Part shown: in pieces, positions 28,040 through 56,417 of the stretch
Position numbering within the stretch: position 1 is the first letter of the stretch
Layout of the letters: every line of letters begins with the position of its first letter
Source: Eledone cirrhosa
Lineage: Eukaryota
Length of the DNA stretch: 64,000 nt
Reading direction: 5' to 3'
Assembly: GCA_964016885.1 (NCBI GenBank)
Contig: OZ024740.1
Span: forward strand, 179,304,001-179,368,000
The notes under the pieces: model-generated
Told to the model about the DNA's origin: nothing
The model's input: only the letters and a program-made list of their open reading frames with translations
Databases searched by the model: none
Position numbers and translations under genes: made by a program

Positions 28040-28045
<6 letters not shown>

Positions 28046-28540
28046 TATTAAAAACAATGAATAAAAACAAAGAACAAGTTCCTTATATTAAAAAATTCAT
28101 CATTTTACGATCATTTCTAGGATATATATGTGTGTTGGTATGTATATCATATAGATCTATGTAAACATTTTACAAACTATCAGAGCAAATATACATACCT
28201 TCACATATATATGCTGTCTTCAGAAATAATTTATTTTTTGAAGACAGCATATATATGTGAAGGTATGTATATTTCCTCTGATAGTTTGTAAAATTTTTAC
28301 ATAGATCTATATGATATACATACCAACACACATATATATCCTAGAAACGATCGTAAAATGATGAATTTTTTAATATAAGGAACTTGTTCTTTGTTTTTAT
28401 TCATTGTTTTTAATAATTTATCTTGACTCTGTTTTCCTGTGATTTTCATCGAAAATTTTTGAATGCATCTTCTCTTTTCATGATATTTGGATTACATTGA
28501 GTTCTTCATACGGATTGGACACTACCGTACATTTTGGTAG
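28040..28540. mobile_element. PLE fold-back: near-perfect ~380-bp palindrome plus tail
   Basis: Arms 28040-28227 / 28232-28421, centre near 28230; tail to 28540. Confidence 0.85.
28102..28227 (-). ncRNA. Type-I hammerhead with ~100-nt stem II; mirror copy at 28234-28358 (plus)
   Basis: ATTT-CTGAAGA-CAGCATATATATGTG...CACATATATATCCTA-GAAA-(C/T)GATCG-TA-AAAT. Confidence 0.65.
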
Positions 28541-36845: not shown

Positions 36846-37779
36846 TGAACATCGTAATCATCCTTATTTTCTTTTTAGAAAAAAATTGCAAAATCAGTTT
36901 GTTGACAGATGTGTTAAAAAAATGCAAATATCGAAAAAAGAGCCTCACTCCCAAGAAACAAACTCACTCCCCACCCTATAAAAAAGAAAAAAAAAAGAAA
37001 AAATGCCACTCATCACTTATTAATTTTTCTCCATTTCACTTTAAGAAATCATTGATAAAATAACGTGCGGTTCTTCTTCTGAATAGTCTGCTATTAGTTC
37101 CCTATTTTTGATTGCTGTCATAAACTTGACACATGGCATTCCAGAGAAGAAACAGAAAAAAAAAGTCACTGTTGTGAAAAGGAATAATCTTAACAAAAGA
37201 AAAGTGGTAAAAAAATATAATGCTAAACTGAAAAAAAGAAGCAAACAAAAAATATTTCGCAAGTTAAATTGAGAAAGAGACCCATCCTCTCCAAAACCAA
37301 AACAACAACAATGCAAGTATACACACGCACACCCACAGATAAGTCTGTAATATTATATGAATAAAATATTGCATAATGAAAAGGAAATAAATAACTAAAA
37401 TGAATAGCCTGAAATATAGAAAATTGAATGGAATGCATATTAATAAAATAAATAAGTGTACAAAACTGATAATAATGAATACTATATTAGCCACAAGGGT
37501 GTGCAAATATAATACCTTATAGCGATAGAGGCACAATACAAGTAGAGCTGGACGGAGTTACATAAAAAGGACGGCAGAGTCAATGACGCTATATAATAGA
37601 GGGATTTCTTATTCATGTGGTTAATTATTTTTACTTATATTTCATTACTGCACTAGGACTAGATGAACACAACCACAAGAATATTGTCCGAACGAGGAAG
37701 AGCCGAACTCCCACTGTTATCGCCTTAAAAGTTGATATATGAAATCGTACTAATTTTAATGAAAACAAATCTATCATGT

Positions 37780-40445: not shown

Positions 40446-41569
40446 TATGTATGTATGTATGTATGTATGTATGTATGTATGTATGTATGTATGTATGTAT
40501 GTATGTATGTATGCAAGTATGTATGTATGTCTATGATATCTCTTTTACTTGGTTGATGAACAGACCTGTAAATTAAACATTTGAAAACATTTTTGTAGAT
40601 GTCTATGGTGGGCATGGTTTCATATTCTAGTCAGTGTATTTTCTTGAGCCGTTTGATAAATGCGTTCATACTTTCAAGTAACCTGGGTAATGTTACGCAT
40701 TCATACTCAAGATGATCTAAGGTGAGAAGATATGTAAAATATCACTCATATGCCTGTGTAAAGATAAATATGATACACCTAATGTACAGAGGTCACAGCA
40801 TGTTTCATTTATCTCATTACACTCTTACAATGGTTGCTATAATATGCTGTTCTTTTAAATCATTAACGCCAGGAGTGCAGAGTGTAATGATACCTGTATG
40901 GATAAATTGTATCTGATGTGTTATGAATGTTATACGGAAATAATTTTGATCTCATTCAAAAATGTTATTAAGAAATAAGCAGTAGCTATTCAAGCAGAGC
41001 AACAGGATATATCCCAAATTCAATTTGAAGTCAATTTTAAACACACGTATCCACCCATCCAACCATCCATCGATCGATCCATCCATCCATCCATCCATCC
41101 ATCCATCCATACATACGTGCATACATACATACATTCGTACGAATATACATATATAATTATGTACTTATACATAAATACAGAAATAATACTTACATGAATG
41201 TACAAATGAATATAGATAAACTTGCATAATAAAGCATAGATGAGTTGGTTTCTATGTCACCCCATTAACGCCTATAGTTATATATCTGTGAATCTATTTC
41301 TCGCCCTCTCTCTCTATATATATATATACACGCACACGTACACATACACACACATTCACACACATATATAAATATATATGTATCATAAGAACAGATTAAC
41401 ATTTAAGCAAATAATCGCTGCTTTCACTTTTAACGGGATTTTATGAAAGTGAAAAAATTCAATCTGTGGACGCAGAAGTAAATATTTCAAAAATCGTTAC
41501 AACCGAAGGATAACAGGAAAACGATAATATGCACATATATTATTCATATATATATATATTATAAAATAA

Positions 41570-42380
41570 CAGGTGGCTGGACTGGTGTAATTCCTTAAAA
41601 GGTTTATTATACTATGATCATTTCAATGACCGGGTTCAGTATGAATCCGGTGACATCATCAGGTATTCGAAGTATAACAAAGGAATATAATAGACAAAAC
41701 TATGGACTGAAAATCAGAGACATGAGGGCGACCGAAGATTTAGCAGCTTCTATCCCGGTTGACCATACGGAATGACCAGTTCTATCCAATGGTGAACCAA
41801 CAAACCTAAATATATATATATAAATATATAAATTAATATGTATGTGATGAAACACAGATACCAACACATCTGTATATATATTGCGAAAGAAATATATATA
41901 CAGATGTGTTGGTATCTGTGTTTCATCACATACATATTAATTTATACACTGCTCAGGGGATATATTTTTCCTCATTCGAGCTGATTCCATTGTAAAAGAA
42001 TTCATTACCTTATTTATATAAATATATATATATTTATTTAGATTTATTGGTTCACCACTGGATAGAACTGGTCATTCCGTATGGTCAACCTCGATGTAAC
42101 ATTATGGAGAGCACTCGACGTAATGTAACTCACCCGTCTTCGTTTGTCTTGTTGGTGGTGCGAGTACAGAGGTGATTGATGGCGGTTGACCGGGTTGCTA
42201 GCTTCTAAATGGTCGGCCGCCCTCATGTCTTTGATTTTCAGCCCTATGGATTTTGTCTATTATATTCCTTTGTTATATTTCGAATACCTGATGATGTCCC
42301 CGGATTCATACTGAACCCGGTCATTGAAATGATCATAGTATAATAAACCTTTTAAGGAATTACACCAGTCCAGCCTCCTG
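41570..42380. mobile_element. PLE fold-back with nested inner palindromes
   Basis: Outer arms 41571-41747 / 42198-42380; inner arms 41757-41822 / 42025-42090 and 41827-41882 / 41893-41946. Confidence 0.85.
42284..42341 (+). ncRNA. Type-I hammerhead ribozyme; mirror copy at 41609-41666 (minus)
   Basis: ATAC-CTGATGA-TGTCCCGGATTCA TAC TGAACCCGGTCATT-GAAA-TGATCA-TA-GTAT. Confidence 0.8.
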
Positions 42381-42568
42381 AACCTAATAACAAATGTTTT
42401 GATAATCAAAAACGGAGAAAGCAGGTTTTGCTAACATCGATTTTTATACATTGTATAAAGATCCTTTATATATATGACAGGTGTGCTTTGCAAACACTTT
42501 TTTAGCATTTTCATCATATCGTCCAGCTCTACATGTATTATGCCTCTATCGCTATAAGGCATTATATT

Positions 42569-42611
<43 letters not shown>

Positions 42612-42702
42612 TATGCCTCTATCGCTATAAGGCATTATATTTGTATATATATATATATATATATACATGTATTATGCCTCTATCGCTATAAGGCATTATA
42701 TT

Positions 42703-42760
<58 letters not shown>

Positions 42761-42947
42761 AATATAATGCCTTATAGCGATAGAGGCATAATACATGTAG
42801 AGCTGGACGATATGATGAAAATGATAAAAAGTGTTTGCAAAGCACACCTGTCATATATATAAAGGATCTTTATAAAATGTACAAAAATTGATGTTAGCAA
42901 AACCTGCTTTCTCCGTTTTTGATTATCAAAACATTTGTTATTAGGTT
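42381..42947. repeat. ~190-bp inverted duplication across (TA)n with a triplicated 39-bp terminus
   Basis: 42381-42570 is the reverse complement of 42759-42947; unit CATGTATTATGCCTCTATCGCTATAAGGCATTATATTTG at 42532, 42605 and 42666. Confidence 0.95.
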
Positions 42948-45474
42948 TAGTTGTTTTTTAATTGAAACTACTGAATGCTGATTCTCGACTACATTGCTTT
43001 CGATCCTTGCTAAAGTAAGGTATACATAAAATATAGTTTAATTAATGCCAAAACTATCGTTGGAGGAATACAGGGTAAACAAACTAATATTAAATACTTT
43101 CGTCCATATTTACTTCCTGACTGTTGTTTCTTGAATTAAGAATCTATATCAAATTTTCACAATAAAATAAGAAAACCTGTATTGGGAGAAATTCCTTCTT
43201 CTGGTGGATTCTTGGATATAAAAAAATATTCAATAGAAATAATACGAACCTTGCCATTTTCAAACAGTATGGTGCGTTGACTAACTCGTGCGTCATTTGA
43301 CTACCAAATGTATGTGTGAATATCAGGACAATGTGACAGGATTTTAGTAAGGCTAGAAATAATACACATTATATCCGTTTATCTACTCAATTAAAGAGTA
43401 GCAAAATAGATAAACATGGATATAAAGCAGAATCATCTTAACAAAGTATCAGAGCTTAACAAGAAATTGTTCGATGGAATGGATTAACGTAGTAAGATAT
43501 AATTGATTATTTCTAATTTTGGAGAATTAGTAATTAATAACCTTATTTTAGGAAAACTGACAATTATCTCAAACAGTCTTGATATAACTAGATAAATAAA
43601 ACAAATTTAAATTGGACTCTTACAAGAGGAGAGACGCTTAACTATCAATTTTCTCAAAACTGTTGCGCGACCAGAAAAAGAAATTCATTACTCAGCACTT
43701 TTACCTTGTTTTTCTTTCATTTTCTGTAAACTGAATCAAATTTTTATCTGAAACAATGATCGTTGGTTTGCTTGGCTACATTATATAGAATATTGAATGT
43801 TTGAAATTATATTAACCAATTTGTATTGGTAATATGTGAATAGCTGAAGTTTATGTCTATGTTTATGTTTAGCGAACCTAATGTGGAGCAGAAGAAATTT
43901 TGCCAAAATTAATATCCACGCTTCAAAGTATTTTACTAAGTTGAAGAAAAGGTTTCAGAAATATAGAAAATTATACATATGTCACGTGGTTGTGCTATTT
44001 CTTTTTATTATATATTTGGGTATTCCGTTTAATTTAATGTAATTTCTGTCATTCGTCAATAGATTCGTTTCCTAATAAGTTAGGAAACATAAAATAAAAA
44101 GTTGATTCTATTACAGACACAAGTCTGCAAATATGAGTGATTGTTATGGGTGAGGGAGCTTCTGCTCAGAGACTTGATCTGTTAAAGACAGCATTCAAAT
44201 ATCCCTGAATTCATTCTTTATCTTCTTGAAATGAAGCATCAGATACTGTAGTCTGGAGTAAAATACTGCTAATAAAAACGTGGCTTGAATGCATTTTAAT
44301 TATACTTGTTTGATCAAGAATAAATGTTTATAATTTAGGCATACATCCAATAACGTTTTGGGGAGAGAAAAGTCAATTCAATTGACCTCAGTGCATTACT
44401 GATGATTTATTTTGTCGACTTCATACATCCATCTCTTGTCAACTCTATTGTATTCAGTCGTAGTCACAATATGATCCACTCCCCAACTAATCATTTCTAA
44501 AAAAAATTGATCTGGAATTTTTATTTCGTCTATTTTTTTCTGCTGGAGCCGACAACATGCAATAATTCATAACAAACATTGCCACTGGCTACGGCATCGG
44601 CCTTGGAAAGCCTGCGAAGGCCATAAACACAACTACGTTTATCTGACCAAATTGATAAAAAATGGCGTCACACTTTATCATCCAATCAAAATTAACCTCC
44701 CATCCTATAAATCTGTTTACCTCAAAATTTGTGAACATTGTTCTCCTTCTCTCACCTTTCTCACCACTTCATCTTACTATTTACTACATCGATGCCTAAA
44801 ACATCTTGCAAGTGTATATTTGCATATACAGTAATATCAGTAGGGTTATGATAACGCCAGATAACGCTGTATATAATTCATATGTTGTGTAATGACAGTA
44901 GTGTTTGTCCCTTCATTTGCTTTACTTACATTAATTTCATATTTGCCGTTGCCTATTGTTCTGATTCCTGAATCACGTTTTTTTTTTAAATTCTAGTTTC
45001 CTCATGTATACATATTGTTTTATAGATCGTAAGGGGGGTTTCTGATTTCACACTGGAATCATTCCTTTGCAGTAAAATATTTTATCTGATTCACCAATGA
45101 AGTATTATTTCATTATTATCGTGTAGTAGTGGTTCTATATGATGTCGCTTACCTTTCTTTATTATCCTTCTCTGCCAATGTCTCTGTTTGGTAATCCCCC
45201 ATCGCATCCTTCTTCATCCGTTGCATACCTTCTCTTGAAAGTGTCCATTATATTTGATGGAGTTAACCTGTTGTGTCTGTCTTTCCTTCAGCCATTTCCA
45301 TTTCAAGTCTTTTCCAGATATCTAACAATCCCAAATTCCTACTTCAACCGGGTTGCTTACGGAATAGCACTTCATAAGTATCTACTTAAGCTTTTCTGCA
45401 TGTGCTACCGGTAATTAAGAGATCACCTATGCTATTAATATGATATATAATGCATATTATATTAAATATGTAAG

Positions 45475-52218: not shown

Positions 52219-53390
52219 CTAGTCTACCCCCCGGTCATTATGGGGTTTGAGGGCGAGGTAAGTCCTACGCAATCTGTGTTTGCATGCAGTTACCAGTTCG
52301 TCTTTCTTGTTTAGGAGTTGGTCCGACGAAAACAGCATTTGTAAAGTTTCCTCCGAGCATAAATTGCACGGACGGCGTCTTCCCGTGTAAGAGTTGGCTC
52401 TGGACAGTAAGCTCCAAGTGAGATCATAGGTAATATTGTTATCCTTGAGGTCCCAGATGTGGCCCGAAAGTGTGGTGGCGTGACGCCCGGCCGGGTTTCG
52501 GAAGGTATGTCTGTTTGTATAGCCGGGTCTTGAAGTCACATGAGGTTAATCCTAAGTAAGCTGTGTTGGAGGTGTCCGTCCTCACGTTGCACTGGTAGAT
52601 CACATTACGATCTCTGCATCTGTTGTCGAGGGGGAAAATGGATCCATCAGGACAATTGCACCTCCTGGTCGGCTCTCCACTGCTTTTTGGGCTATTTCTT
52701 CCATAGGGGTTGAGTTGTTTGTTGTTAGAGGAGACGATGTTTTGTGCAAAGTTTGGTGTGGTGTTGTAGGAGAGTTTGATGGTATTTTTGTTAATTATGT
52801 TGTGGTAGCGGTGTTGTAGTGGGAAGTGTTTTTCGATGAGCCTAAAGAAGATTTTCCCGATAGGAGTTGTCACCTCGGCGTTGTGGGGAGGATTGAACCA
52901 TATTACATTGCGCGAGCGGCGGTGTCGCCTGCTGGTTCCGCTAATGGAAGCTGGACAGTAGGATATTTCCTCCCGGACACCACTCCGCTTGAGGGCCTGG
53001 TTGTAATAAGGGGCATGTTCCTCGAATATCTGCTCATTAGCGGACAAACGAGATATGCGGAGGGAGATGTTTTTAACCAGGTTATTGGTGATGTTCCTAG
53101 GATGGTTTGACCGGCGGTGGATGTAGTGCAGGTTGTCGTTGGGTTTCCTGTATGGGTAGTACAGATCATTATCGAGGTCAAGGGTAACGTCCAGGAAGTT
53201 TACTCGGGTCAGGGACGTATGTAGGGTTATTTTAAATCCCCAGTCGCGGAAGAAGCTGATTAATTGTTTACGGACCCGGTCTGTACTACTGGGGTTGTAC
53301 CATTTAAGGGTAAGGAGCCCATCATCACGGTATAATCCACCGCCGAATGCAGGAAACATATCGGTGAGTTTAACTAGTAGGAATAATGCT
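52219..53390 (-). pseudogene. PLE reverse transcriptase C-terminus plus GIY-YIG endonuclease, frameshifted near 52510
   Basis: GLYRDDGL (RT catalytic motif), VNFLDVTLDL, SNHP, IWFNPP, VIYQCNV..AYLGLT..FKTR, T.LS.HIW.LKD, CNLC..E, LLNKKDEL..CKH. Confidence 0.92.
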
Positions 53391-53636
53391 ATAAGATCTG
53401 TATATATATCAAGTGACGTTTTGATGAATAAACACATGTACAGAGAACCCCACAGACAAATTATTGCATACACCATTTTAGTTATTTACACTTAAATGAA
53501 CACAGTAGCTTATGATAATCATATATACCAAAACCTATTAATCAGTTTAGGCCAGTACCTATTAAATGAAGACTCTTATATACACACACACGTACACACA
53601 CACGCAATCAAAGACACACACACACATTCACTCCAT

Positions 53637-53829: not shown

Positions 53830-54164
<335 letters not shown>

Positions 54165-54356
54165 ATGTATATATATATATATACATACACACATATATAT
54201 ATATATATATATATATGTGACTGAGTGGTTAGAGAATTGGATTCACAATCTTGAGATTGTGTGTTCGATTCCTGGACCGGGCGACGGTTCTTATATATTT
54301 GATATATATTTATCCTTATTGAGCCCTCTTTGGCTTTTAGTCTTCAAATTTATTAT

Positions 54357-54440
<84 letters not shown>

Positions 54441-54594
54441 ATAATAAATTTGAATAAGGATAAATATATATCAAATATATAAGAACCGTAGAGCAAATAT
54501 TTATTAAAATAACAAAAAGCGAAGGTTAGTTTCAAAAGATCCCGTTAAGGGTGAAAGCAGCGATTCTTTGCTTAAACTTTAATCTGTTATTTTA

Positions 54595-55067: not shown

Positions 55068-56417
<1,350 letters not shown>

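Follow-up and report, generated by a model that had tools for sequence, protein, structure and literature searches.

The window analysed here is a stretch of 64,000 nucleotides from the Eledone cirrhosa contig OZ024740.1 (positions 179,304,001 to 179,368,000), part of a 3.0-Gb assembly in which TA tracts abound. It contains two arms that mirror each other across a (TA)n tract (Table 1) and differ in 5 of 190 aligned columns, through four substitutions and one indel. The left arm ends in a 39-mer that recurs in two further, identical copies, each of the three being followed by a TA run of different length, and that is found as its reverse complement at 42759-42797 in the right arm. The initial annotation had described both the mirror, which holds at the divergence just given, and the three 39-mers with their unequal TA runs, which are exact. 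Its claim that the unit starts right after an internal TA is likewise confirmed, since the repeat begins directly 3' of CTC-TA, with a TA of 2 nt as the restart point. Read along the minus strand, the order is flank, TA, 39-mer copy, TA, 39-mer copy, TA, 190-nt copy and element, with about 320 nt of inserted sequence in the array and the left arm. The 39-mer was found only at the array locus and at 37504-37554 and is absent from the neighbouring element. The junction of the left arm with the hammerhead repeat, at 42380/42381, shows 0 nt of microhomology relative to the usual continuation of the family. The fusion, reported previously, is confirmed; the hammerhead "fold-back" to which the arm was said to be joined, in contrast, consists of two insertions of one family and a younger third element.

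Table 1. Features of the mirrored array and its surroundings, in window coordinates.
Coordinates	Strand	Feature	Remarks
37504..37554	+	Likely source of the 51-bp piece, lying 5.2 kb upstream	
41557..41816	.	Separate insertion of the neighbour's family	Inverted pLTR 41557-41752 and tail fragment 41757-41816
41827..42014	.	Very young hammerhead family with 522-bp unit, between the two insertions	Hairpin 41827-41946 is its own inverted end
42031..42177	-	Inverted "tail" of ~150 nt	Same insertion as 42176-42380; left end at TA-rich run
42176..42380	+	pLTR-like end of a 2.07-kb non-autonomous PLE-type family	Lacks the family's last ~12 nt and TA run
42284..42341	+	Putative minimal type I hammerhead motif	4-bp stem I, CTGATGA, GAAA, palindromic stem III; no Rfam match
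42381..42570	+	Left arm, inverted copy of right flank, putative nascent copy	Derived state at all 4 substitutions
42532..42570	+	39-mer copy 1, end of left arm	After a single TA within the 8-bp palindrome TACATGTA
42571..42604	.	TA run	34 nt
42605..42643	+	39-mer copy 2	Identical
42644..42665	.	TA run	22 nt
42666..42704	+	39-mer copy 3	Identical
42705..42758	.	TA run, mirror centre, putative fold-back point	54 nt
42759..42947	-	Right arm, original flank and template	Repeat family goes on past 42947, where the left arm ends
42759..42809	+	51-bp piece, putative earlier templated insertion	Elsewhere found only at 37504-37554 (94%), in a search that may skip common words; abuts older repeat at TGGACG
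42810..43026	-	Older TA-targeted dispersed repeat, hammerhead-shaped with non-canonical core, candidate for another PLE-type end	569 first-look candidates

In contigs from sequencing runs X2-X4, which represent one sample, possibly the assembly's own, and so are not independent of the assembly, alleles private to either arm occur at single-copy depth, and sequence common to both arms at twice that depth. In run X2, the flank had a contig depth of 9.3, left-specific alleles 10, right-specific alleles 9.2 and the part common to both arms 20.3. Because the specific alleles of both arms are present at single-copy depth, the mirror is not an assembly artefact. This support covers the arms outside 42559-42770, an interval masked in the read comparison, and the three-copy count comes from the assembly. 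Among the contigs listed for runs X2-X4, none bridges 42380/42381, and the array is not covered in RAD run X5 or run X1. It might be argued that the mirror is genuine and that sequencing or assembly error in the hairpin-forming TA region has inflated the three-copy array, given that 42559-42770 was masked in both read comparisons and that no listed piece spans the stretch. However, the units are exact and their TA runs unequal, both arms are supported at single-copy depth, and an independent locus (L160, see below) shows the same design, so that such inflation appears very improbable. At 42505-42516, run X3 yielded two extra contigs at a depth of 7-8 whose alleles match neither assembled arm; they are absent from X2 and X4, which share its sample.

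The element fused to the left arm is classed as a non-autonomous Penelope-like element (PLE) by structure only, because ORFs for a reverse transcriptase (RT) and a GIY-YIG domain are missing: in six loci, the family unit contained neither a long ORF nor a tblastn match. Its anatomy, with pLTRs, partial tandems, an inverted truncated copy and TA targets, agrees with the PLE-type neighbour proposed initially. The family returned 2020 first-look candidates, with direct terminal repeats 2.04-2.09 kb apart in four of six long loci and with inverted copies being common. In the (non-independent) rows of the hammerhead motif, CTGATGA was found in 242 of 283, GAAA in 252 and the stem pairs in 269-275. 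A search of Rfam over the window returned nothing at gathering score and, at E<=1, only hairpin-shaped models, mostly microRNA, all under their cut-offs; the MFE fold of the hammerhead region is not a hammerhead. Elsewhere in the window, a GIY-YIG ORF (PF01541) lies at 55767-56240 (minus strand), and an ORF at 52439-53485 (minus strand), for which there was no Pfam match, resembles a fragment of a PLE RT; both are located outside the family adjoining the mirror.

The two insertions of this family, at 41557-41816 and 42031-42380, are 92% alike and flank a much younger element. The hairpin at 41827-41946 was considered as a second flank fold-back and dropped, as it belongs to this young element. 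The family with the 522-bp unit (window 41827-42014; L312-L322, L335-L387; G000:C2:407495468-407506552) returned 1232 first-look candidates, many of them 100% identical, and shows long tandem arrays, two TA-joined ends and a hammerhead-like motif; by these features, it resembles an active non-LTR retrozyme or a non-autonomous PLE. Retrozymes are presented as non-autonomous PLE derivatives in the accessible part of 10.64898/2026.07.22.740005, which, like that of PMC13282606, has no bearing on the mirror.

The end of the neighbouring element in the window is clipped. All 29 other loci of the family that were compared run beyond the window's break into a conserved AT-rich end, followed by TA or by a tail of ~150 nt and TA, and exact family ends continuing into TA were found for 380 short and 338 long ends. 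Among the 20 exact matches with a non-T next base, 19 still enter the normal end, leaving the window copy as the one that is truly broken.

Positions 1-139 of the arms belong to an older dispersed repeat, for which 40 of the first-look candidates were scored. The best other copies of this repeat are 79-88% alike, as compared with 97% between the two arms. The right arm continues in the older repeat to about 43026, whereas the left arm stops at 42381, and at all four substituted sites the right arm has the majority base of the family and the left arm the derived one. As the right arm runs on into its repeat and keeps the majority bases, the left arm was copied locally, in inverted orientation, from the right flank. 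The older repeat (42810-43026; L003-L030) has two TA-joined ends ~50 nt apart and the motif core TTGATAA in 21 of 33 rows; the label "MITE", applied to it at one point, was dropped in view of these ends and the hammerhead-shaped motif. The 51-bp piece next to it may derive from an earlier templated insertion copied from 37504-37554, and the TGGACG at its junction with the older repeat is also present in the long end of that repeat. Seen post hoc, all three differences between 37504-37554 and 42759-42809 raise the self-complementarity of the copy, two of them perfecting a hairpin stem and one creating the 8-bp palindrome at the restart point.

The relative age of mirror and element bears on whether the two arose together. 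The adjoining insertion carries 13 private changes at 344 sites and the other unit 6 at 256, some of which the element may have inherited. The template arm and the 39-mers carry none, as against 7.1 expected by base class at the insertion's rate (P=0.0008; 0.03 at half that rate); with polarity ignored, Fisher's test gives p=0.053 and Poisson estimates range from 0.017 to 0.37, making this a weak form of dating. Three of the four changes in the left arm are from A/T to G, whereas 11 of the 13 changes in the element are of G/C origin, which hints at copying errors in the left arm. The counts thus moderately favour a mirror that is younger than the adjoining element and an event that took place after the insertion rather than with it.

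We surveyed 1.4 Mb (1,409,745 bases with 3562 TA runs), made up of the window and 234 other loci, namely 176 loci of the neighbour's family (4 overlapping ones dropped) and 58 of the young family. Control TA edges lay at least 900 bp from the family, and the mirror detector, which leaves out some mirrors seen by eye (e.g., L291 and L174), recovered the window as a positive control. In these small counts, from loci picked by one intact end and with control edges that often border other PLE-type families, 2 of the 508 family junctions carried a TA-centred mirror, as did 8 of the 2067 other TA edges (p=1.0). The initial annotation had itself suggested comparing PLE ends with other TA tracts, and its expectation of a specific association is not borne out by these equal rates. 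It had also envisaged recurrent arrays at PLE ends; none of the 508 junctions surveyed combines mirror and reiteration, and the sole analogue of the window's structure lies 899 bp away from the family. Working in favour of a PLE-linked fold-back, mirrors were fused to 2 of 128 TA-less junctions, a kind to which that of the window belongs, from two PLE-type families, as compared with 3 of 17,180 random positions (p=0.0005), subject to the same restrictions. Another detector, which missed the window and L314, returned counts of 2/393 versus 9/1878 and 1/115 versus 0/189.

Repeats of the unit-(TA)n type occur at six places including the window, and besides the window only L160 has a mirror. This independent structure (L160:2349-2643) combines a mirror with a reiterated 63-mer across TA. 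It terminates with another copy, partial and inexact, and TA, to which no element is attached. The identity between its arms is 97.6-100%, as opposed to 78-87% to their own family, which by comparison of these identities makes the mirror much younger than the repeat it mirrors. At L342:778-881, the target flank is folded back across a 44-nt TA run and joined, through a 3-nt overlap (TAT), to a very young element at the truncated 5' end of the latter. At L246, a mirror abuts the 5' side of an element that we take, from its promoter motifs, to be a tRNA-type SINE; since this mirror adjoins a SINE, the fold-back process does not appear to be specific to PLEs. It also occurs during insertion, because fused mirrors are enriched at TA-less junctions and the L342 case concerns a very young element.

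Several other structures came to light in the same survey. Palindromes abutting family ends, considered as support for mirrors, were mostly the inverted ends of other families and were left uncounted. L241:1267-3991 and L203:2223-3590 contain near-identical tandem units of ~310 bp within inverted repeats that span 1.1 kb at 99.9% identity, abutting a family end, which by this identity represent a very recent amplification. Directly after family 3' ends, L186:1923-2036 and L257:5822-6079 carry exact inverted copies, 25 and 29 nt long, of sequence 64 and 200 bp downstream, respectively. In the window, 53969-54284, 54284-54489 and 28043-28418 are other mirrors or palindromes built of dispersed repeats.

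Collectively, the structure is a real and rare scar, which we interpret, with a probability of roughly 0.6, as the product of repair by TA-primed fold-back synthesis with re-priming, carried out by host end-joining of the Pol theta type. The initiating break probably occurred in the (TA)n tract and could have come from cleavage of a TA cruciform or from a PLE endonuclease; TA repeats are described as break-prone via cruciforms in the available text of PMC13669725. The right-hand end, whose TA is self-complementary, would then have snapped back and primed synthesis along its own strand, with a Pol theta-type host end-joining polymerase as the likely enzyme. Synthesis may have halted after 39 bases and TA and re-primed in the TA tract by means of a 2-nt match, with a final round running for 190 bases; the third 39-mer could alternatively have been added afterwards, by slippage from one TA tract to another. 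As a last step, a blunt join would have linked the new end to the left end, which had lost its TA and ~12 nt of the retroelement. Host end-joining is favoured because mirrors are no commoner at family ends, because the L160 structure lies ~900 bases off the family and because the mirror looks younger than the element. In the portions available of the respective reports, Pol theta is described to prime, extend and release repeatedly at a single flank, with priming by 1 nt and errors (PMC5068794), and to switch between modes (PMC4912351), and SD-MMEJ is described to involve snap-back and apparent blunt joins (PMC5728401). The same texts give a median insert size of 7 bp (PMC4912351), with most inserts below 25 bp and snap-back as a minor class (PMC5068794). 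The ~320-base insert is long by this measure, and this length and the enrichment of fused mirrors at TA-less junctions are points against a host origin.

The latter enrichment, with L342 and its overlap as a clear case, speaks for a rival model, in which a PLE RT supplied in trans produced the entire structure while the element inserted. This RT would have extended the folded-back TA end on DNA, released and re-primed twice and then jumped to RNA 12 nt inside the usual start. The copy is indeed fused within ~12 nt of the normal family end. According to the accessible parts of the sources, this PLE class has two RT start sites, starts reverse transcription internally without homology and extends both strands (PMC11167929), self-priming and template jumps have been proposed for Penelope (PMC3846280), and group II-like RTs perform DNA snap-back in vitro (10.1101/2022.03.14.484287). 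However, mirrors are not enriched over all junctions, none of the 508 combines mirror and reiteration, and one truly broken end among 20 candidates contrasts with 380 exact intact ones. Moreover, L160 has no element at the end of its copy, the mirror looks younger than the element, and L342 involves an element truncated at its 5' side, a setting in which host joining is active as well. The copy's end matches the end of the tail over 8 nt, a length attained at 7% of the 612 end points possible and not significant. On balance, an RT origin is unlikely, if still a serious contender. Its most far-reaching version, in which PLE RTs, as sisters of telomerase, seize folded-back (TA)n ends, recopy target DNA in cycles and then jump to RNA, multiplying TA tracts and flanking units, is more doubtful again.

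A third scenario holds that a single fold-back gave rise to the 190-bp mirror and that both extra 39-mers were added later by replication slippage or unequal exchange. In line with it, no difference separates the four 39-mers, as against five differing sites in the remainder of the arms (P about 0.07), and segment duplications between TA tracts that lack a mirror exist at L195, L314 and L355, those at L314 and L355 being plain duplications beside young copies. Yet the units at these three loci have long TA or simple tracts on both sides, whereas the first duplication in the window is bordered on one side by a TA of only 2 nt, a length ill suited to ordinary slippage. We therefore regard this scenario as improbable.

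Reiterated TA-centred flank mirrors at PLE ends were not found reported in the largely non-subscription literature searched. If the repair interpretation is true, TA tracts in a repeat-rich genome act as self-priming break ends. With ~0.4% of sampled TA edges beginning a local mirror, some of them at the 5' joints of retroelements, this process would be a source of new palindromes and of additional TA tracts, a modest step beyond the end-joining chemistry already known. If a PLE enzyme is responsible, the structure would offer a direct handle on the mechanism of PLE integration and on the roots of telomerase-type re-priming.

Telomerase proceeds by extension, release and re-annealing through a short match, thereby recopying a short RNA template into tandem units at the chromosome end. 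The array resembles this mode of repeat addition in its cycles of extension, release and re-annealing and its tandem units, and the iterative synthesis through TA microhomology suggested in the initial annotation fits the sequence, in particular the 2-nt TA. However, the telomerase-like part of this proposal fails, because the template of the unit was flanking DNA of the same strand rather than RNA; in addition, it comprises 39 nt and a variable TA run, and only two extra units were added. By template and by recurrence, the structure is thus not telomerase-like. As for the predicted gain of TA microsatellite, the extra TA was copied out of an existing tract.

Close parallels are found in end-joining. 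As far as the available parts of the reports go, Pol theta-mediated repair and SD-MMEJ (PMC5068794, PMC5728401, PMC4912351) share with the array an inverted templated copy of the flank primed at a short inverted repeat, re-priming by 1-2 nt, copy errors, an apparent blunt join and a small deletion. The array differs in its insert of ~320 nt, as opposed to tens of bases, and in its primer repeat, a long (TA)n tract that is recopied in each round; its resolving junction lacks microhomology (0 nt), for which SD-MMEJ leaves room in the form of apparent blunt joins. Fold-back inversion at hairpin ends (PMC7467729) and TA cruciform breakage (PMC13669725), as covered by the accessible text, likewise feature a hairpin-primed inverted duplication and a break-prone TA tract, whereas the duplication described here is local, 190 bp long, end-joined and reiterated. 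The neighbouring element, in turn, resembles Penelope-like elements, as portrayed in the available sections of PMC8557442, PMC3846280 and PMC11167929, in its direct pLTRs in partial tandem, inverted truncated copy, optional tail and TA targets, along with a putative type I hammerhead motif. It departs from them in the length of its tail (~150 nt versus the 30-40 known) and the lack of an ORF in its family. Finally, the inverted repeats described there for Penelope-like elements consist of element sequence, whereas the part that is mirrored and reiterated in the window is the target flank.
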